Assembly (NCBI GenBank): GCA_022813865.1
Contig: JALDZX010000013.1
Span: 186,001-250,000 of the forward strand
DNA length: 64,000 bases
Reading direction: 5' to 3'
Source: Xylographa opegraphella
Taxonomy: Eukaryota
Shown here: positions 15,926-39,206 of the stretch, piece by piece
Position numbering within the stretch: the stretch's first letter is position 1
Layout of the letters: each line of letters begins with the position of its first letter
The notes under the pieces: generated by a model
The model's database searches: none
Told to the model about the DNA's origin: nothing
What the model saw: only the letters and a program-made list of their open reading frames with translations
Position numbers and translations under genes: made by a program

Positions 15926-18900
15926 ATGTATTCCTTCCATAAATATTTAGCTGCCCTATCCTCTGTTGTTGTATTCACAGCCTTGGTTGTTTTTCTGACG
16001 CCTCCATCTTTCTCATTGCTTTCGGATGGTTGGCAGGCGCCCCCAGTCCAGACGACACACGAGTTTCGAAGCTCGAAAGAAAACGTTTGGGCTGATCTGA
16101 ATGATGTCGAGTTCAATGATGTTCTCGAATTTCTACATTCAGAATCTAACGGCCTGAACTTAACTAAAGGAACTGTCGCTAAGCCGTGAGCAAATCAATC
16201 GTTTCTCAACTGTTCTACCTGTGCTATGTCTAACATTGCTTAGTTGGGATGATAGACTGTGAGGGATCCGGCCTGAAAGTCGTCAGATATCTAACCCTAG
16301 ACAGTCTCCTTGTCGAAGCTCTGCCACCGAACAAGACAGACTCTCTGCAATATCTTGACAATGCCTCGCAGCTTCCAGCACGATGGGCTCGTGTCACTGT
16401 CAGCCAAGCCGCTTCGAAAAAGGATAGAGCTACGATCTTTGAATATATGGTCAGACTTTCTGGCTCTCTCGATACGTGCTCGAGGTTGACGATGATAGGT
16501 TGGACCATTACCTGTAGATGATACAACTCAGATACTACCATTGAATTATTGCTATAACTCAGGAAGGAATTATGCTTGGAACCCTATCCGTAACACCGAA
16601 GCCTTTCTGCAATGGATTATCGACTCGCTTGATGAGGTTTCAGACATTGCGCAGGATCTCCTTGGAGGCGTAGGTTGTATAGTTGATGTGAAATACTGTG
16701 AGCTAATCTAGCGCTCTAGGTGCCGATCCGATACAATCAATCAGATGCGAACAGCCTGACGCCCATTCCTAGGATCTCCGTCATTGAAGACGGACGGATG
16801 GTTATCTGGCTGCAGCTATACAGAGCAGGGCTAAAATCGGATGCATGGTCCATTCTGCCGCAAGGTCTATATGCTAAACTTGGTCTGTACAATTGTGTGA
16901 CATAGTCGAGAACGACCGATTGACATCTCGGCTGGTGTAGATGCGTCTCATAGCGACTTGAGTGAGTGGAGAATCTTGCAATGGTACTACAACGGCATAT
17001 TATACAATTCGACTGCAATGCTTCGCGCTGCATGGCAGAGTCCAGGCTTTGAAAAAGTATTGCCAAATCTTGATGGTGAATGGACGGATATAGAAGACTA
17101 CAGTCGTGGAATTCAAGGCAGAGAAGTGCCTCCTCCAGTCATGGTTCTGCCTGCGGGACCTAGATACGATATTGATCGCAACCAGAAGTTCGTATCTTGG
17201 AGTACGTGATTAGTGTCTTTGCCAGCAAAGCCTTACTGACCGTGTATCATTAGTGGGCTTCGAATTTTATGTTGCCTTTTCGCAAAGTAAGGGCATTAGT
17301 CTTTTTGATATCAAATTCAAGAATGAACGTATCATCTATGAGGTAGACTTCCGCCACTCCTCACACGCAAGACATTGGACTGACTTTGATACGGTTGCAG
17401 CTCGGTATGCAAGAAGCGCTAGCACACTATGCTGGAGCAGATCCTTCTCAGGGTGCTCAATATTTCCTGGACACGTTCTTCAACATGGGTGTGCATATGT
17501 TCGAGCTCGTTCCAGGTAAGATGTTACTTCTCGAACTATCATTTTGTCACCATGCCAACATGCAACAGGATATGACTGTCCCGCGTACGCAACATATCTC
17601 TCCACATCCTATCATGCCGGTGATACCACACTCACAAATAAGAACAACATATGCCTCTTCGAGTACACCGCTGATCACGCTCTCCAACGCCACACAACCG
17701 CTCACTCCGTATCTATATCTCGAAGCCAATATCTTGTTTTACGCTCCGTCTCAACAGTTGGGAATTACGATTACACGATCGATTATCTCTTCTATCTTGA
17801 CGGCAGTATAGAGGTCAAGGTGCGTGCGAGCGGTTTCATCTTCGGCGCTTTCTATGGTTCCTCGGAAGCTAGCAACAAGACCGGAAGCAATGAGTATGGA
17901 TACAGAATCCATGATGCAGTCTCGAGTAGTATACACGACCACGTCATCAACTTCAAAGCCGATCTTGACATCGCCGGGACGACGAACACTCTCGTCCGTG
18001 TAGGCATCGAGCCTACGACAGCCTCCTACGAGTGGGAACGCGAGGAACGGGCTTCTCGAAACACTATGCATCTCGTCAACACCGCTATACAGGAAGAGAC
18101 CGGACTAGATTGGCCAGGGAACTCTGGCGCAATGTACATCGTTCTCAATAACGATTCCACCAATGCATGGGGCGAAAAAAGAGGATACCGTATTACGCCA
18201 GGAACTGGCATGGGTACCCCCCCGCATCTGACAATCCTGAACTCAACAAGCTTAGGCAGGGCAGCAGAATGGGCGGGTCGAGACCTGTGGGTTGTGAAGC
18301 AGAAAGATACGGAGCCACGAAGCGCGAGTCCGGTGAATTTCATCGAGCCTCACAACCCATTGATTGACTTTGCGAAATTCGTTGATGGAGAGGCAATCGT
18401 GCAAGAAGATTTGTGAGTTCTGAAATTTGCTCTATCTGGCGCAAAGGGCTCGACCCTAGTCTTACCATCCTTTGCCGCGACTTCCGATCTATTTTCTCTA
18501 CTAATCAGGTTTTCTACCAGAGTCATCTACTTCAACCTCGGAGCCCATCACATTGCCCACAGCGGCGACATTCCCAACACCCTCATGCACACTTCAGCGT
18601 CCTCGGTGATTTTCACCCCGCACAACTTCCACGACCGAGACCCGAGCCGGGAGTCCGTCCAGGGAGTCAAGCTGGAGCTGGGAGAAGGTGGCCACAAGCC
18701 GCGATACTTCGGTGGACGGTATACCGAGGGTGTGACCCTGAACATTGTAAGTAGCCTCCCCTTTCCTTCCGCGTTGCAACGAGAAAGAGCAAGTAGTTTC
18801 TCGAGCTTTGGAACGTTATCGGCTGACCCATGGACTCGGTAGACGGATCTCGAGCCAGATTTGGAGCGTTATCAGGCCGTCAGGCATGATGTTACGGACT

Positions 18901-24052: not shown

Positions 24053-25216
24053 ATGCCATCCTGCTACTGTGGCCGTGGCTTTTATGATCCTGGTTCCCTT
24101 GATCAGCATAGGCGGGCAAAGCGACACGGTTGCTGCCGCCACTGCGATCGATTCTTCAATAGCGATGAAGCATACGAGCAGCACTCTTTCCCCTGTGGGA
24201 CTTGTCAGAGGAACTTCGCTTTGGCCACGGCTCTCAGACAGCATCAGGAGAATACGGGGCACGCCTACTGCCGCGATTGCAATCGAGCTTTTGTCGGCAC
24301 GGAAGCGCTTGATCAACATCTCAGCTCTTCAATCCACGCTTCCCACTTCCACTGCTGCGATTGCGACCGAGATTTCGTCAGTGCCGACGCGCTGAACCAG
24401 CATTTGAGAGACAAGGTGCATAAGCCAAGGACAGGCTCCTCGTCGGCTCTCGCAACAGAATCCAGCTGGTCCTGCCGAGAATGCGATAGAGCGTTCGCGG
24501 ACGAGACAGCATTACGCCAGCATCTCTCTTCCGTGGTTCACCATCCCTTGAGCAACATCCCGTGTCCTGGTGACAAACGCTGTAGGAAGCGTTTCACGTC
24601 CCCATCAGCAGCCGTTCACCACCTCGAAAGCGGCGCTTGCCGTTCTGGGATAACGCGGAAGTCGTTGAACGCGCTCATTCGGTCCAGCGATGTCCAGCAG
24701 CTCATCCACAATGGTAGTGGAGGGGAAGAAACGCCCAGCTTATATTGGGACGATAATGCCTCGACGTCCTCTTTTGGCGGCGGGGCACCGATCATGACAC
24801 CCAGATCAAATCGAAGCGTCGCGACCAACCCGCTTTCTGCGTCTCTTCTCTCAGGGCTCCTCACTCCGCTCTCTTCAGGCTCGGACGACTTCGGCTCTGA
24901 CTTCGCACCGACAGCTCCACCTTCCTGTCCTCTATGCCTCCGGACATTCCGCACCATTGGAGGGCTGCAGGACCACATGTCATCGCCAGCTCACGAGTTA
25001 AAGATCTTCCACTGTCCACTCACATTCACAGCACCCTTTCTGGACGAAGCGAGCGCCACGAAGGCCACAAAGCTCTTCTCGACCCTCAGTGGCTTGACGC
25101 AGCATCTCGAGAGCGGCGCCTGTGTCGGAGGCAGCGGCACGTGGCGGTTGGTGATGCAGTATGTGGAGGACCGAGCGAGGCAGAATGGGTGGAAGAACTT
25201 GCGGCTCTTGAAGTAA
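24053..25216 (+). CDS. Multi-C2H2 zinc-finger protein
   Basis: Intronless 387 aa with repeated CxxC-x12-H-x3-5-H fingers (e.g. CRDCNRAFVGTEALDQHLSSSIH) and two HLESGAC motifs. Confidence 0.88.
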   Translation: MPSCYCGRGFYDPGSLDQHRRAKRHGCCRHCDRFFNSDEAYEQHSFPCGTCQRNFALATALRQHQENTGHAYCRDCNRAFVGTEALDQHLSSSIHASHFHCCDCDRDFVSADALNQHLRDKVHKPRTGSSSALATESSWSCRECDRAFADETALRQHLSSVVHHPLSNIPCPGDKRCRKRFTSPSAAVHHLESGACRSGITRKSLNALIRSSDVQQLIHNGSGGEETPSLYWDDNASTSSFGGGAPIMTPRSNRSVATNPLSASLLSGLLTPLSSGSDDFGSDFAPTAPPSCPLCLRTFRTIGGLQDHMSSPAHELKIFHCPLTFTAPFLDEASATKATKLFSTLSGLTQHLESGACVGGSGTWRLVMQYVEDRARQNGWKNLRLLK

Positions 25217-25858: not shown

Positions 25859-26443
25859 ATGGCCAACAACCCCCTCTTCCCCGCCCGCAACCCGATCAGC
25901 AAGAGCGAAATCCACGATGCCATCGCCGCGGCACTGCTGGTGCAGACGGACGCCATGACGCAGCACCAGAAACGGCCCTTTGCGGCCGTCCTGCTGGGGC
26001 CGGACAACAAGACGGTGCTGCTGTCGCATTTCTCCATCTCGCACGTCGAGCACGCGGAGGCGTGTCTGGCCCGGCTCGCGGCCGTGCATTACTCGCAGGC
26101 GTACCTGTGGAGGTGCACGCTGGTCAGCACGTGGGAGCCGTGCGCGATGTGTACAGGGACGATCTACTGGGCGAATATCGGCGGGGTGGTGTACGCGGCG
26201 AGTGAGGAGACGTTGAAGGTGGTTACCGGAGTGGGGAATGGGGAAAACTTTACGATGGCGATGGGGTGTAGGGAGGTTTTGGCGAGGGGGCAGAAGGCGG
26301 TTTTTGTGGAGGGGCCGGTGGCGGAGATGGAGGGGATGGTGGTGGTGGAGAGTGATAAGTATTGGAGGCCGATCAGAAAACGATTGGAGAGGGAGCGGCG
26401 AGGGGAATATTCGGGGCCCGAGGGTGGGATTGCAAAGAATTGA
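25859..26443 (+). CDS. Zinc-dependent nucleobase/nucleoside deaminase (cytidine/dCMP deaminase superfamily)
   Basis: HAE...TWEPCAMC zinc motif followed by TIYWANIGGVVY; intronless; ATG at 25859. Confidence 0.9.
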   Translation: MANNPLFPARNPISKSEIHDAIAAALLVQTDAMTQHQKRPFAAVLLGPDNKTVLLSHFSISHVEHAEACLARLAAVHYSQAYLWRCTLVSTWEPCAMCTGTIYWANIGGVVYAASEETLKVVTGVGNGENFTMAMGCREVLARGQKAVFVEGPVAEMEGMVVVESDKYWRPIRKRLERERRGEYSGPEGGIAKN

Positions 26444-26489
26444 GGAAGTCAGGCGCAGCATTCCGATGTGTGGCAGCCTTGAATAGCGC

Positions 26490-27254
26490 TCACGGATCTG
26501 GTTGTATGACTTTGTCATCATCAATCAAGGCCCTGAGCTCCTGCAGCGGTGGAATGCTCGTCACCCTCTCGCTCGCCAACTTCTCCCAGAGAATTCCGCA
26601 GGTCGGTTTGTTGGCGTTGGAAACCTCGATGAGCTTCGTCGGCGTGATCACAACATCGCACACGGTATCGAACAGCTCCGGGACGAGTGGTTCCGTCAGA
26701 ACCTGGCAGTCATGCACGATTGCCGCGGATGGAGTGATCGACGAGATTGCGCCTATGCTATACAGCATCGCCCACTCGAGGTCGAAGAATCCGTGCCCTT
26801 TCCCAAACCGAATCCCGTCAAGGTTGATCGCGCCAGTGCCGGTGACCATGAGATCTATCTTCAACCGACGATTCATCATGTCCGACAAGCTTATCGGTTG
26901 TCCTATCCGCTCCATCCCATCCAACGTGGAAGCATACCAATACTTCGAAGGATCAATCCGGCTTGGGTCGAGCAGCCAGAAGCCTCTGCGAATAGCATAT
27001 GTGGTCATCAGAACAAGTTTCCCATTCGCCAAGGCCTCATAACGCAATTGCTCCAGACAGTTGTCAGGGGTAATGAACACGTATTGGGCGGATTGATAGC
27101 TAGGCATCCGTGTGAGACGCTGTGTGGCCTCCGACGAGCCTTGGAAATCCGTGATGAACTTGGTGAAGTCGAAGTCGAAGCGCGAATCCGCATATGCAAA
27201 CCCCTTGAGCTCGGACCATACTCGTTGTCGGATCGAGGATTTATGACTGTCCAT
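26490..27254 (-). CDS. 5-formyltetrahydrofolate cyclo-ligase paralogue (COG0212/MTHFSD-type)
   Basis: Intronless 254 aa. RQRVW N-terminus, FITPDN, IDLMVTGTGAINLDGIRFGKGHGFFDLEW, VHDCQV and DVVITPT, resembling the COG0212 subfamily rather than canonical Fau1/MTHFS. Confidence 0.82.
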   Translation of the reverse strand: MDSHKSSIRQRVWSELKGFAYADSRFDFDFTKFITDFQGSSEATQRLTRMPSYQSAQYVFITPDNCLEQLRYEALANGKLVLMTTYAIRRGFWLLDPSRIDPSKYWYASTLDGMERIGQPISLSDMMNRRLKIDLMVTGTGAINLDGIRFGKGHGFFDLEWAMLYSIGAISSITPSAAIVHDCQVLTEPLVPELFDTVCDVVITPTKLIEVSNANKPTCGILWEKLASERVTSIPPLQELRALIDDDKVIQPDP

Positions 27255-27596
27255 TTTCGTTATTCAACAAGACAATGTTATTTGAAGATGCGCATAAGAT
27301 GATTGATCGAGGCATTCATGTATCCAGCCTCTTCTCTATCTTGCAAATCCAGAAGAGGAAATGTTGATACCCGAGTAAATAGAGTTTTCGAGATCGCCTC
27401 CGCTTATCGCCAACCTAAGCCTCTTTTAGGCAATGCTTACACATCATCTGCATCGTTCGTCATCTTGCTTTTGGTGCGGCGCCGTACAGCTACAGGGACT
27501 GTACCACGTTATGACTTCGATTAGCTGTCCGACCGGGCTGTGACACTGTCTTAAGAGCTTTACACCACCTGTCCCTAACTTGTCACCATACACATC

Positions 27597-29451
27597 ATGG
27601 CAACAGCAGTTCTGGATAGTACCTCAAACGAGAAGGCCAGATATAATGGCTCGGACGATGAGAAGAGAAGGCCGTCGTGGGTTCCTTTGTCGGGAGATGG
27701 GGCACTTGAGGTTCTGCAGCAGGTCAAACTCCAGGATGAGCACCACCCGGTCCACTGGCCGGTCTGGAAGAAGTGGTACATCATCTCCGTCTACTGTCTT
27801 CTTCAGGTCTTCGTCACTCTCACCTCGACCTCGTATGTGGCAATCGAGTTTTTGATCCAGGAGCAGTTCGGCGGAAGCACACAAGTCGTCACTCTGGGCC
27901 AGTCGCTGTTCATCGTCGGCAATGCCATAGGTCCGGCCTTCCTGGGTCCCTTATCGTAAGTGCCGGATTATACCGTCATTAAGTATTTGCTCACTTCGAG
28001 AAGAGACCTCGGAGGGCGCAAGTGGATTTACGTCGGCTCAATCTTGATTTACGCCATTTTGAATATCGTGAGTCGGTCGTCTTGTTAGGCGCAATCAGTA
28101 AAGCTAATCAAATGCAAGGGGACTGCCAAAGCTCTGAACTTGCCCATGCTCATCATCTTCCAATTCCTTGCTGGCGCGGCAGGCAGTACCGCTTTATCGA
28201 ACGTGGCAGGGACCATCGCCGATCTGTTTGGAGACGCGGACAATGCTGGTCAGGCAATGGCTCTCTTCGTTCTGGCCGCGAACGTTGGGCCCAGTCTCGG
28301 AGGCCCTGTGGGGGAATGGGTTGCGGAAAACGTGAACATGGGATTACCGTGGCTGTTCTGGATGAAGTGAGAGCTAACCTTCGCTAGTCGAGATTCTCAG
28401 GAGACTGACATATTGTAGTGTCATCATAGGCGCAGCATTTGCCCTCTGGATGTGCTTCGTCCCGGAAACTTTACCGAGAGTGGTCATTGCAAGAGCCGCC
28501 CGTAAACAACCAAATCCCAGTTCTGATGAGCTTACTGTGGTTGAAGCCAAATTCAACGTGGCGGGAGAGCTTCGCTTTGTCTTCACCATGGCCCTAAAGA
28601 TCATGGTCACCGAACCGATCGTCACTTTTCTTGCGGTATACAATGGTTTTGCCTACGGACTGCTCTTCCTCTACCTGGACGGAGTGTTTGACGTGTTTGT
28701 CATCAACAACGGGTTATCGTATGTTTATAAGTCTAGCGCTAACTCTGTAAGATGCTGTACTGATTCGTCTTCAGCTATATCGGCGCAGAGCTTACCTATC
28801 TCAACTTTGTGGTTGGCGTGTGCGTCATGTTTTGCTTTATTCCAGTTCAGACATACCTGTACAAGCGCGATCGCTTGAGAAGAGGTGGTCTTGGCAGGCC
28901 GGAAGCTCGATTTCTGGTCTCGCTCGTCACCGTCTGGGGTTTCCCACTCAGCCTGTTCTGGTTTGCGTTCACAAGCGACGGAAATACATCCTTCTGGAGT
29001 CCGGTGGTGGCCGGAGGTCTTCTCGGGTTTGTAGATCCATTGCTATATCTTAGCATGTTGAACTACATCACAGGTACTTGTCCCCTATTTTGACAATAAT
29101 CGTGAGGGGGCATACTGATCAAAGTTCGCCATTCAGATGCCTATCCCAACGTCGCAGCCTCCGCTATCGCCGCGTTCCTCATCCCGTCTTTCATCATCGC
29201 TGCGGCCTTTGCTCATATCGGTAGGACCTCCCCTATTCTCTCCTCCTCCTCCTCCTCCTTCTCGTGTAGATCCTGTACCGCAATGCTGACGCACGTGTGC
29301 CGCAGGTATCGTCATGTTCAACAACATGAGCACGACGTGGGCCATGGCAACGCTGGCTTTCGTGTCCCTGGGGCTTGTGGCTCTCATCTACGTGCTGTTC
29401 TTCTTCGGTCCCGTCCTCCGGAGGTGGTCTAAGCTGGCTCGGACATTTTGA
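27597..29451 (+). CDS. MFS transporter, DHA1 family, Bsu1 (vitamin B6/thiamin-pyrimidine transporter)-like
   Basis: HPVHWPVWKKW, GPAFLGPLSDLGGRKW, NVAGTIADLF, PETLP, RPEARF, YITDAYP motifs across about 7 exons. Bsu1-likeness is from recalled sequence resemblance. Confidence 0.85.
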
Positions 29452-33973: not shown

Positions 33974-35775
33974 TCACACCCGGAAAACCGCTGTTTTGCT
34001 CGTGATGCCATCGAACACGCAGGTGTTGTCTATAGGCACGTATTGCTTCGTCAGGACCTTGATGACCTCCTGCGCCACCATGCCCCCCGTCAGCGCAGAG
34101 ATGTTGTGCAGCTCCGCCAGCCCACCCCTCGCTAGCTCCATGATGACATTGTTGAGCCGCTCTTGCGTAGCCTCGGTGTCGACTTCGACCTCGCTACTCT
34201 TTTTGAGCCCCTCGACGATCTTGTCGGTGTATTGAGTCATGCTCCACTTCAGCTTCCGCTGCTCGGAATTCTCTGCATCGCTGCCTAGCTCGCTGCTGGA
34301 ACGAGCCGCTGGGTTGCGCTCGTAGTAATCATCGAACGCGAGGAGCGCCAGGTAGATTGTGACGAGCGATTCCTCGTTCTCAAGCTCGCGCAGAATGTAA
34401 GTGGCGCGGTCCGACCAGTTCATGGAGTCGGGATCTTCTGGGATACGCAGCCGACTGCCTTTGATCAGCTTCACAAAGCTAGCGCCTTTGCAAAAGGCTT
34501 CGATCTCCTTCTCGTCGATTGCTGCTGACCTGCTGAGTTGCTTCTCGAGTTCTCGGACACGCCGTGTGACATCGGCAAGATCTTGGCGAGCTTTGGACTT
34601 GTAGATGTTTTGTAGTTGGATGTAATCTGCAGACTGCGCCTTCATATCTGGCAAAGCCCCCGGTAAAGGTAGGACGTTATGTGCCTTGTGAAATGCTTGC
34701 AGTGCATTGGCGATGACCCAGAAGTTTGGCGACTGGAGCAGTTCTAGTTAGCTCGAAAATGAAGACATGCATTACCTTAGCATACCTGCGGTGTAGGATT
34801 TTGGCAATGGTCGGCCTCAAAGACTTCTCTCAATCCACTGGATATTGACGGCGGATTCAAACTTTTCAGTACGGCACCAACAGCCTCGTCAAAATTCTCC
34901 TCACCACCTTCAGGGTTATTTTTCCGCGCCCCATTTCCGACCATTGACCGGAATGCAGATTTCTCTTTATAGTTCTCTGGAAATCTGCCATCATTCCGGG
35001 CCTTCCACTCATCAAGAAAATAGAAAAGCACAAGGAGATATGGAATGTGCCCATGTTCATGGTCACTCATTTCCATGATGTTGTGTGTTTTCGTATGCAT
35101 GAAGTTAAGGAGTTCAGGCCAAGGATTCAAGAGGCGAAGGTCTTGCGTGGATACAGGATCGGGGTGCGTATCAACTATCGGAAATTCAAGCGGCAGCTGT
35201 AACGAAAACTGGGAGTAGAACCCATTTGAATGTATGTACAGTAAGGGTATCGAAGCATCCCAGGCATAAGAAGCTACTGTCTTGAGGACAGTTGACAGAC
35301 TGGTAGGTGCAGTGATCAGAATCAAGGTGTATTTTCTCAGGTTGTCTCTCGATGACACGAAATGTCCAATGTTCTAAATTCAATGAGCTCATTGCCTGGG
35401 GCTTCCACAACGCTGAACTCGTCTTACCTGATTTATACCATTGCCCCTAACCTCCGGATTCAGCTCCTGTAAATAACTACAACATTCTTCCGCTCGAGAA
35501 CGTCCCAAGCTCTCTTCCGCAAGAAAGAAGTTTACCCCCAGATCCTTCTCTTCGACCAGCCGGTCATCCACAATCGTAAAGTTCCCCACCCCAGGAAGCA
35601 CTAAATTCTTCAGTGTCTCAACACCAACCGTACCTGCTCCATCATTCAACAGAAGAACATGAGCATCCTCAAGCGCCATTTGCCCACTTGCTGCCCACAA
35701 ACGGAGTTGCCTGTCATACTTTTTCTCCTTCGCTGTTGGTCCTTGAAGGGGTGGGGGCGTCACGCTGGTTGCCAT
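33974..35775 (-). CDS. ULA1: NEDD8-activating enzyme E1 regulatory subunit
   Basis: KEKKYDRQLRLW, ETLKNLVLPGVGNFT, HGHIPY, EENFDEA, ELHNISALTGGMVAQEVIK..TKQYVP; two introns. Confidence 0.95.
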
Positions 35776-36867
35776 AATGGCGGCGGCTAGGCACTGAGAC
35801 GATAGTGGCTAACGTATCATGACTTTGCAGCAGCTTTGTAACAAAATCTCTATCCGTGATTCTGGCGGTAGTGGTAGGAATAACAACGGTCTGAATTCTG
35901 GTCTTCGAGCTTCTCCATTTCCATGAGCCTGACGCATTGCGGAAGCGCTAAGACTATCTTAGGCTAGTCCCAAGATGAAGACTAACACTAATAAGCGCGC
36001 TTTCCGCACGCAGCACAATTTGTTAATGGGCCTAATGAGAAATTCACATGAAGAAGTTATCCTACCCTACTGCTCTTCCATGTCGTTTGTGGGCTTTAAA
36101 GGCAAGATGCGTGTACTGCAACTGGTAGATATTGGTCTACGTTCTTGATCATAAATCTATTGCTTCCTATCGCGCAGTATCAATGATGATTTTTCCCCAA
36201 AAGATATATCTTACAGATGCAGGACGTATTGCAAAAATCCGATGAACTTCGTCTCTTGCAGCCGGGATCCTGCCATCCAGAAGGATTGAGATAGTCAAAG
36301 TTGAGTGCAAGCTCGATATGGCACAACCGCGCGCCGGTTGGAAGTAAGTTGTGCAGTATACGGAAGGCAGGTAACTTGGCTTTTGCTGCAGTTGAGGACA
36401 TATCCACAAAAGCATCAATAGAATTTGGTATTATTGAACACGGCCTTTGATCTCCTTAGTCCTCAGACTTGAGTTGAGTGAAGAAGGTACTCAGCATACA
36501 ACAAGTGTGAAATGGTTTCAACTTTTACCATACCTGCGGTATATTGAACCGTAGAAGCACGATTGGCTCAATGGCTCGGTTGGTCCAAATGATGTGTTCG
36601 ACTATTTATGTTTTCAACAGCCAAGTGTCTCGCCGAGCATTATCTTCTTTACAACTTGCCTGGTCTCCGTAACAAACACGAACGTTGACCTACCACAAGT
36701 CCGGAAACAAAAGCTAGTCGATGACACCCTGGCACGACTCTACGGGGGCTATAAGAGAACTACATGAATGCTGACATCGAAGGCCTCCATCACTGAATGT
36801 CAAAGTGATTAAGACATCGATCCGTCAATATCACAGCTCGCTCATAGGTACTGCTCGTCCAAGCAGC

Positions 36868-37707: not shown

Positions 37708-38256
37708 ACAGATTTTTGGGATCCTGCGCATAGATTTATGGTGTTGATTTGTTATAAAATGCATCTGCCATCTATAGATGCTGTGAGGGTTCACAATTCG
37801 AGACACTCTGTACAGCCTCAAGGTTTGATGTCGAAATCTGAAGCCATACCTTTAGGCTTTAGCATATCTGCCTCGGCTAAAGTTAGCTCGGCTCGTATCA
37901 CGCGCTTGTTGAAGCGCGCAGCGGCGGGGCAGAAGAAAAGACCCCTCCGCAAGAGCAAGTCTTGAAACACAGCTCCACGACCGTTATCCCATCCATTGAG
38001 CGCCGCGCTCTGTGTTCTTCCACACATCGTTCACTCCACAATCGATTGATGATAAAGCTGCCCAGCCTCCGCCTCCAAAGAATCCCCCTTAGGTACTTCT
38101 GCCCACAATAGAACCCCCCCCTCACCCCCGTCGCAAGATGATTAAACCGCTTACAGATGCACACATAATCCCCTCACCTCCCACGCGCAATCCCACCCGC
38201 CTCCCTTCCCTCGAGCCCCACAACACACCCTCTCCGCCTCCCCTCCCCTCCCCACC

Positions 38257-39206
38257 ATGGACATCGAAACCGCCAAACGCAACGCCGCCATCCGCGCCGT
38301 GCACGACCACTTCGACGCCTCGGCGCGCTACATCGGCATCGGGTCCGGCACCACGATCGTGTACGTGGTCGAGGCGATCACGCAGCTGGGGATCGACACC
38401 TCGGGCATCCGCTTCGTGCCGACGGGCTACCAGTCGCGGCAGAACATCCTGCACTACGGCCTCACGCCCATCGCCTTCGACTCGCTGCCGCCTAACACGC
38501 TGATGGAGGTCGCCTTCGACGGCGCGGACGAGATCGACGAGGACCTGAACTGCATCAAGGGCGGCGGCGCCTGCCTGTACCAGGAGAAGCTGGTGGCGAC
38601 GCACGCGAAGAAGTTTGTCTGCGTGGCGGGTGAGTCTTTCGCGCTCCTGGGGGGAAAAAGGGGGCCTCGTGGGGGGGGCAATGAATTGTGTGTGTTATGT
38701 GTTTGGGAGACTGATGGATGGGGGGCGTGCTAGATCATCGGAAATTGCAGCATCGCTTGCTTTCGCATTGGCCGTCCGTGCCGATCGAGGTGGAGCCGCT
38801 GGCGGCATCGGTGGTTCTGACCGCGCTGCGAGCGCTGGGCTCGACGGACCCGAAGCTGCGGACGGGGCCGATGTCGAAGGCGGGGCCGTTGAAGACGGAT
38901 CAGTCGAACTTCATCATCGATGCGCCGTTTCAGACCCTGCTGCTACCCCAGGACAAGGGCGCGATGGAGCCGGGACATAGTCAGGGGTGGGAGGTGGAGG
39001 CATTGGCCAAGGAGATCAAGCTGATCGAGGGGGTCTTGAGTGTGGGCATCTTCTGTGGGGAGAACGGGCAAGAGGCGGCACAGGCAGGGAGGAAAATGGG
39101 GGGACAGAAACCCATCGCTGCATACTTTGGAATGGAGGATGGAGGTGTGGTGGTCCGGAGCGCCGGGTCGAAAACTGTATCAACAGAGGAGGTGCCCATT
39201 AAATAA
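38257..39206 (+). CDS. RKI1: Ribose-5-phosphate isomerase A
   Basis: GIGSGTT, DGADEID, IKGGGACLYQEK, KAGPLKTD; one intron ~38630-38733. Confidence 0.96.

Follow-up and report, generated by a model that had tools for sequence, protein, structure and literature searches.

Why should a zinc deaminase, an enzyme resembling 5-formyltetrahydrofolate cyclo-ligase (5-FCL) and a carrier of the major facilitator superfamily (MFS) lie side by side in a fungal genome? The three genes are found in a 64,000-nucleotide stretch of DNA from Xylographa opegraphella (contig JALDZX010000013.1, positions 186,001 to 250,000), called the window below. With somewhat less than even confidence, we favour the view that they serve to take up a substituted aminopyrimidine-like heterocycle and convert it at the expense of ATP, the deaminase being a part added in certain lineages. 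An earlier note on this DNA had described three genes within 3.6 kb, a promoter of about 340 bp between a divergent 5-FCL-like gene and MFS gene, and a deaminase gene converging on the former with a 46-bp gap. This layout was recovered from the open reading frames (ORFs) and an exon model of the MFS gene, and all three genes are intact:

25859-26443, plus strand: zinc deaminase gene of the cytidine deaminase (CDA) fold; single intron-less ORF, 194 aa; PF00383, 44.8 bits
26444-26489: 46 bp between the stop codons of the converging deaminase and 5-FCL-like genes
26490-27254, minus strand: gene for the 5-FCL-like 'B' subfamily enzyme; single intron-less ORF, 254 aa; PF01812, 55.2 bits
27255-27596: divergent intergenic region of 342 bp, common to the 5-FCL-like and MFS genes
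27597-29451, plus strand: MFS (DHA1-like) transporter gene, modelled with 7 exons, 499 aa
27597-27955, 28004-28067, 28119-28366 and 28419-28718, plus strand: exons 1-4 of the MFS gene
28775-29073, 29137-29220 and 29306-29451, plus strand: exons 5-7 of the MFS gene

The MFS model comprises 1500 nt with one terminal stop and six GT..AG introns of 48-85 nt. Across all 499 residues its product is 96.6% identical to an annotated protein of Xylographa parallela (P0121), which matches PF07690 (MFS_1) with 117 bits. The window protein is accordingly classed as a twelve-helix MFS_1 carrier of the DHA1 type.

The same neighbours are found together in other fungi. Synteny was judged from the NCBI locus tags of the search matches, consecutive tags being taken as adjacency. 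By this measure the genes for the 5-FCL-like enzyme and the MFS protein adjoin each other in nine species, namely X. parallela (7572/7571), X. pallens (2688/2687), X. bjoerkii (4435/4436), X. trunciseda (2937/2938), X. soralifera (4272/4271), Pycnora praestabilis (4444/4445), Cirrosporium novae-zelandiae (6086/6085), Ogataea haglerorum (000081/000082) and Cytospora schulzeri (08600/08601), which represent five ascomycete classes (Lecanoromycetes, Candelariomycetes, Xylobotryomycetes, Sordariomycetes and Pichiomycetes). The three-gene arrangement is more than a product of chance, as the recurrence of these neighbours on consecutive tags of other fungi shows. The MFS protein is 56-82% identical to its orthologues in other fungal classes, and its tree largely tracks fungal taxonomy; both fit a single orthologue group with a conserved job, not a fast-evolving family of drug pumps. 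In Ogataea the other neighbour of the enzyme gene encodes 171-283 aa and matches no Pfam domain; some annotations of Ogataea angusta (P0323 and P0326, 475 aa) fuse the 5-FCL-like gene with this neighbour (compare P0321 and P0322).

The deaminase has a narrower place in this picture. It adjoins the enzyme gene in seven species (X. pallens, X. bjoerkii, X. trunciseda, X. soralifera, Lambiella, Ptychographa and Pycnora), lies with it on small contigs (5.9, 7.4, 22 and 25 kb) of four further assemblies, and forms a consecutive trio with the enzyme and MFS genes in four Xylographa species and Pycnora. The deaminase joins the pair only in Xylographaceae and Pycnora; in Trapelia, Cirrosporium, Bachmanniomyces, Cytospora and Ogataea no deaminase was found on the same contig among the best 120 matches listed. 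The conserved linkage expected by the earlier note therefore holds for the enzyme and the MFS protein, in nine species of five classes, and not for the deaminase, which is a lineage-limited addition outside the conserved core. As a protein it is well preserved, with H65-A66-E67 and P94-C95..C98 (the HAE and PCxxC zinc site) invariant in 30 homologues. Its model (predicted local distance difference test, pLDDT, 92.7) finds the closest solved fold in Msmeg3575 (Msd; template modelling score, TMt, 0.81-0.84), which was solved with ammeline and 5-azacytosine, followed by NE0047 (TMt 0.59-0.65), plant guanosine deaminase and TadA. With Msmeg3575 and NE0047 it shares the CDA fold and the HAE and PCxxC zinc site; it differs from them in its low identity (22-24%) and in the fungal blocks KRPFAA, LTGxGNxENFTM and GQK. 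Given these nearest folds and the intact catalytic motifs, it is most likely a deaminase of free amino-heterocyclic bases.

What, then, is the enzyme at the core of the pair? Canonical MTHFS, that is 5-FCL itself (Fau1, YgfA), was ruled out, with 19.8 bits against the cut-off of 84.9 for MTHFS_bact (TIGR02727) and 20.1 bits against 343 for a second MTHFS equivalog model (NF007661). A true MTHFS (130-136 bits) is encoded elsewhere in three Rhizobiales genomes that hold the closest bacterial homologues of the window enzyme, and MTHFS sequences form a very distant outgroup in a tree with the 5-FCL-like proteins; the earlier placement of the protein outside the Fau1/MTHFS group is confirmed by these results. 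The PDB contained nothing relevant at E<=1 for the single sequence, and a profile of 36 sequences retrieved at best 1sou with E 0.1, no confident solved relative. The structural model (pLDDT 92.5) has an MTHFS-like fold, with TMt 0.63-0.71 at 15-17% identity to MTHFS structures (1ydm, 2jcb, human 3hy3 and 3hy6; Foldseek E 7.6e-10 against 1ydm), and the next fold matches are eIF2B and ribose-1,5-bisphosphate isomerase, relatives that bind sugar phosphates and belong to the same fold class. In the profile alignment the motif RFGKGHGFFD aligns with GYRLGFGKGYYD of 1sou (Aquifex MTHFS), and also with 1wkc; invariant or nearly so, it is included in the 37 invariant columns of the 36 sequences, which come from fungi, bacteria and one archaeon. 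Thus, the enzyme shares with MTHFS the PF01812 family, the pattern G-x-R-x-G-x-G-x-G-(F/Y)-(F/Y)-D and a later D-x-x-x-D stretch, whereas it is about 60 residues longer and genes of its type sit among transporters, not folate genes. The conservation of the glycine-rich motif and its alignment with MTHFS are taken as a sign that the enzyme is active and uses ATP.

Members of the 5-FCL family that are not MTHFS reportedly occur in all domains of life and are said, after Pribat et al. 2011, to be needed for embryo viability in Arabidopsis. The window enzyme resembles this COG0212 '5-FCL-like' paralogue (At1g76730 and the Haloferax gene) in being a PF01812 member that coexists with MTHFS, as in the three bacterial genomes above, and it is found beside transporters of types to which thiamin-pyrimidine carriers also belong; it differs in that it probably belongs to a subfamily separate from, and rarer than, the paralogue studied for thiamin. 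The fungal enzymes are 58-62% identical to proteins of Martelella, Hartmannibacter, Rhizobium, Ochrobactrum, Devosia and Shinella. In the careful tree they form a clade with one of two bacterial paralogues, copy B (support 99/100), the bacterial B copies being a clade of their own (100/100). A tree with monophyletic fungi is not rejected (p-AU 0.49); neither the direction nor the age of any transfer between fungi and Rhizobiales can therefore be read from it. At E<=1e-20 the window-type enzyme occurs in 32 of 301 genomes of the Rhizobiales order; at E<=1e-40 it was found in 2/301 genomes of the Actinomycetota sample, 5/251 of the Chloroflexota sample and 2/251 of the archaeal phylum sample, with the centre genome counted in each. 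A search of 1.84 billion representatives with the enzyme profile gave 296 matches at E<=1e-30 and 2180 at E<=0.001. Among 81 Haloferacaceae genomes, three carry a close window-type orthologue and 65 more a paralogue that is only 30-40% identical, which is probably the one studied in Haloferax for a thiamin phenotype. Judged from these sequences, the window-type enzyme is a rare and sharply conserved subfamily. The available text of the sources on the family as a whole describes it as associated with thiamin, of unknown function and not 5-FCL (PMC4120688, PMC3223725, PMC5041015). The ESM Atlas yielded nothing beyond generic names.

Some side observations on the family may be added here. The common haloarchaeal paralogue (PF01812, 80-100 bits; loci L075, L078 and L079) lies near genes for a small GTPase, DUF389 and SIMPL, and at L075 (Haloferacaceae) a NUDIX and IF-2B-family fusion is nearby; the three loci have neither thiamin genes nor a riboswitch. 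Single fusions join the 5-FCL-like domain to GTP cyclohydrolase II, Tpt1/KptA RNA 2'-phosphotransferase, a DSP-type phosphatase domain or zinc knuckles, and there are a tandem double of 517 aa and a protein of 1810 aa with 7 matched stretches; these unusual forms (P0445, P0406, P0426, P0431, P0335 and P0336) could be gene-call artefacts. In an Anaerolineales metagenome-assembled genome (MAG) the homologue is divided into two short ORFs of 96 and 102 aa (L005:3484-4233) and may be broken or mis-assembled.

The bacterial and archaeal surroundings say most about what such an enzyme does. With the fungal enzyme as query, 16 prokaryote loci were retrieved, and in eight of them an importer stands beside the homologue: energy-coupling factor (ECF) transporters in five, one of which also carries an MFS gene, and a Bmp-type ATP-binding cassette (ABC) importer, an NMT1/THI5-type ABC importer and an NCS1 carrier in one each. 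The putative S-components of the ECF transporters (253-317 aa) match no Pfam or NCBIfam model even at E<=1. Searches with the Bmp-type binding protein led to lipoproteins that bind nucleosides and to the atrazine-binding protein. In one Mesorhizobium MAG the 5-FCL-like gene and the Bmp-type gene are a single frame of 612 aa (L007:5983-7818), probably a stop lost in long-read assembly rather than a true fusion. The bacterial MFS protein at locus L003 is not specifically related to the fungal one (best BLASTP E 0.29), so the carriers were recruited independently. Moreover, in two Chloroflexi loci a formamidase-family gene and a DUF1028 gene stand just upstream of the homologue.

In Rhizobiales the setting is an operon. 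Seven of ten loci have a divergent gene for an RpiR regulator followed by copy A, an NMT1/THI5-like binding protein, an ATPase, a fused permease and copy B, the two paralogues being about 41% identical; these are L047-L053, and in L053 copy B lies on the opposite side of the RpiR gene. The nearest solved relative of the binding protein is ThiY (3ix1; E 4.6e-16, 62 bits), whose ligand is N-formyl-4-amino-5-aminomethyl-2-methylpyrimidine, followed by 4nmy and THI5. As with ThiXYZ of Bacillus halodurans, this is an ABC importer with a binding protein, but the similarity is moderate, and the Rhizobiales operon has the RpiR gene and two 5-FCL-like genes and possesses no thiamin pyrophosphate (TPP) riboswitch and no TenA or YlmB.

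Two further contexts bear on the ligand. Regulators of the GntR type with a 5-FCL-like sensor half occur at three of the 16 loci and make up ten of the 39 long homologues, and we conclude from this recurrence that a small ligand is bound by the 5-FCL-like domain. At the three loci (L008, L009 and L015) the regulator is encoded directly upstream of a stand-alone 5-FCL-like copy; among the ten proteins (P0345, P0346, P0351, P0358, P0365, P0369, P0387, P0401, P0403 and P0415) one carries a UTRA domain and another a 4Fe-4S domain. A third paralogue of Rhizobiales, which shares about 30% identity with the window protein, is found in an Atz-like catabolic setting at all six loci examined (L080-L085, in genomes G294, G078, G131, G025, G037 and G206), next to an AtzE-like amidase and, in part, an AtzH-like protein (2/6), allophanate hydrolase (4/6), an isochorismatase-family hydrolase (3/6) and an ABC ATPase (4/6). 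Gene sets of AtzG, AtzE and AtzH are described as serving the catabolism of nitrogenous compounds, and the available text of that source mentions no cyclo-ligase-like gene with AtzH-type sets (PMC6219798).

We see the strongest case for joining the enzyme to uptake in the fact that unrelated carriers accompany it in different lineages; the same fact suggests that the fungal MFS protein is the eukaryotic stand-in for the bacterial importers. The company of the family indicates, in general terms, small nitrogen heterocycles and ureides, and a formylamino- or amino-pyrimidine is our best single guess for the substrate class of the window type. From the observed genes, intact motifs, folds and conserved neighbourhoods in fungi and bacteria, we infer transport direction, ATP use, reaction chemistry and substrate class as follows. 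The core would be a two-gene unit of a dedicated MFS carrier and an orphan enzyme with the 5-FCL fold. The carrier would act as a proton symporter and bring in a small N-heterocycle resembling a substituted amino- or formylamino-pyrimidine, and the enzyme would then spend ATP to activate, by phosphorylation as in MTHFS, a carbonyl or formamide oxygen of the imported compound, after which a neighbouring nitrogen or water would resolve the intermediate, with ring closure, dehydration or trapping as the outcome. The free-base zinc deaminase of Xylographaceae and Pycnora may in addition strip an exocyclic amino group from the substrate or the product. A more specific form of this scheme, which we regard as improbable, is that the enzyme is an ATP-dependent cyclo-ligase re-closing imported ring-opened formamidopyrimidines, such as the thiamin fragment N-formyl-4-amino-5-aminomethyl-2-methylpyrimidine or purine remnants of the FAPy type; a formamide beside an amine would become a cyclic amidine, as in MTHFS chemistry, and the lichen deaminase would process the re-formed base.

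Several observations weigh against the proposed uptake and conversion of a heterocycle. Half of the 16 prokaryote loci have no transporter, four of these being short contigs, and copy B stands alone at three of the ten Rhizobiales loci. In Trapelia one gene model separates the enzyme from the MFS gene (tags 2728 and 2730), and in X. carneopallida the two are on separate contigs. Six metagenome contigs carry an MFS homologue (45-66% identity) with more than 1.1 kb upstream and no enzyme gene; four of these were included in the MFS tree, where they group as one clade. A metagenome scan with the MFS orthologue gave nine loci, mostly short, with neither the enzyme nor the deaminase in any. The deaminase family, which is widespread in Dothideomycetes, Chaetothyriales and Leotiomycetes, is common in fungi without an enzyme homologue among the best 120 enzyme matches, and in Capronia and Saccharata it is not beside the MFS gene. 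The MFS protein is of DHA1 type and by sequence its nearest solved chain is yeast Qdr2 (E 3e-6); MFS proteins of this type are often exporters. Finally, related proteins are said to have been assayed on thiamin breakdown products by Pribat et al. 2011, with a negative outcome.

Among the other explanations, strict vitamin salvage survives best, though we consider it unlikely. Here the MFS protein, as a carrier of the Bsu1 type, would bring in pyridoxine or the thiamin pyrimidine, and breakdown products of thiamin or vitamin B6 would be returned to the vitamin pathway by the enzyme together with the deaminase. Bsu1 (Car1) of Schizosaccharomyces pombe is described in the available text of two sources as a pyridoxine proton symporter repressed by thiamine (PMC6253932, PMC4153625). 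The window MFS protein shares the MFS_1 family with it, and several orthologues bear its name in public records: seven of the 75 MFS matches are named 'vitamin b6 transporter bsu1' by their source, and eight 'multidrug resistance protein' (JGI). The thiamin association described for the 5-FCL-like family and the nearness of the operon binding protein to ThiY, the binder of a thiamin breakdown product, and to THI5 point the same way, as does, weakly, the NCS1 neighbour, which scores 64 bits against a cut-off of 310 for the predicted hydroxymethylpyrimidine (HMP) carrier CytX.

Thiamin-dependent control was sought with Rfam. Bacterial thiamin transport operons usually carry a TPP riboswitch; such a riboswitch was found in none of the 32 prokaryote loci holding family members, nor in the window, where nothing matched at E<=10 between 25000 and 30000, the divergent intergenic region included, and nothing reached the gathering score in the whole 64 kb. 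These searches gave no thiamin-dependent control element for the window MFS gene that would liken it to the thiamin-repressed bsu1. The promoter region, compared with the single related metagenome contig that has upstream sequence (L057), shows 67% mean column identity and no clear conserved blocks. Furthermore, no domain of the TenA, ThiD, ThiM, ThiE or YlmB type occurs in the 198 neighbour ORFs scanned (84 + 61 + 53), and fusion to a thiamin enzyme occurs in none of the 39 long homologues. The RpiR and GntR-fusion regulators are typical of catabolic operons, and together with the missing riboswitches they lean towards a catabolic or scavenging role. The widespread haloarchaeal paralogue, as said above probably the one studied genetically, is at 30-40% identity far from the window type, and the deaminated thiamin pyrimidine is, by textbook knowledge, an antivitamin (oxythiamin, oxy-HMP). 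Thus, the thiamin/B6-specific version is weakened, and the interpretation in the earlier note is borne out in part; its vitamin part finds no support in the riboswitch and domain searches or in the probable subfamily placement, and the alternative which that note also allowed, a related pyrimidine or N-heterocycle, fits better.

It is less likely still that the genes are neighbours without a common pathway, kept adjacent by the compact promoter or by inheritance, with the MFS protein a general drug or cation exporter and the deaminase an unrelated housekeeping enzyme acting on bases. The MFS homologues that exist without the enzyme, the spread of the deaminase family far beyond the pairing, the 'multidrug resistance' names and the housekeeping flanks of the window are in keeping with this explanation. 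However, adjacency has been kept between Pichiomycetes and four Pezizomycotina classes, between which gene order is otherwise, as textbooks have it, nearly all scrambled, and the same bacterial enzyme stands independently beside four unrelated importer types, which would be difficult to account for if enzyme and uptake were not functionally linked. Very unlikely, finally, is detoxification and export, in which the enzyme would modify a toxic internal heterocycle or antimetabolite and the MFS protein would expel the product: DHA1-type carriers are usually proton antiporters (textbook), the nearest solved chain is Qdr2 and detoxification is raised as one option for the family in the available text of PMC4120688, but the bacterial partners are all importers by architecture (binding-protein ABC, ECF and NCS1), and Bsu1, the sole characterised transporter whose name is attached to the MFS group, is described as an uptake symporter in the available text of PMC6253932.

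The genes that flank the three in the window are housekeeping ones, including those for a C2H2 zinc-finger protein, GMP synthase, a DBP10-type helicase, copper amine oxidase and RpiA, so the three genes lie outside any larger metabolic cluster, and such a cluster in the window was ruled out. Directly upstream of the deaminase gene, 24053-25216 (plus strand) encodes a protein of 387 aa with several zinc fingers of the C2H2/JAZ type. Three other features, all within 12 kb, have no evident tie to the three genes: an intron-split copper amine oxidase gene at 17520-18839 (plus strand), a fragment of the ThiF family (E1-like) at 35392-35808 (minus strand) and a ribose-5-phosphate isomerase A gene at 38146-38730 (plus strand).

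That the 5-FCL-like family is an orphan and is linked to transport genes in prokaryotes was known before, and some of the bacterial clusters may be listed in the original 2011 paper. To judge from the literature searched, five things appear to be new: the distinct A/B subfamily, the two-copy importer operon of Rhizobiales, the conserved pairing of enzyme and MFS gene in five classes of ascomycetes, the deaminase as a recruited partner, and the occurrence of a third paralogue in Atz-like clusters; no paper describing the fungal pairing was found in that search. For 5-FCL-family proteins other than MTHFS no reaction is known, a puzzle that dates from 2011, and the window locus offers routes to its solution. 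A first handle is the distinct and very conserved subfamily itself, 58-62% identical between fungi and Rhizobiales; since it is tied to uptake in both kingdoms through unrelated carriers, its substrate can be argued to come from outside the cell. A second is the ThiY-like binding protein and the GntR-fusion sensors, which could be used for ligand capture, and a third is the presence of the pair in Ogataea, a yeast with good genetics, where a knockout and a nutrient screen are feasible. If the re-closure of ring-opened formamidopyrimidines were true, it would be a previously unrecognised heterocycle-recycling pathway common to Rhizobiales and ascomycetes.

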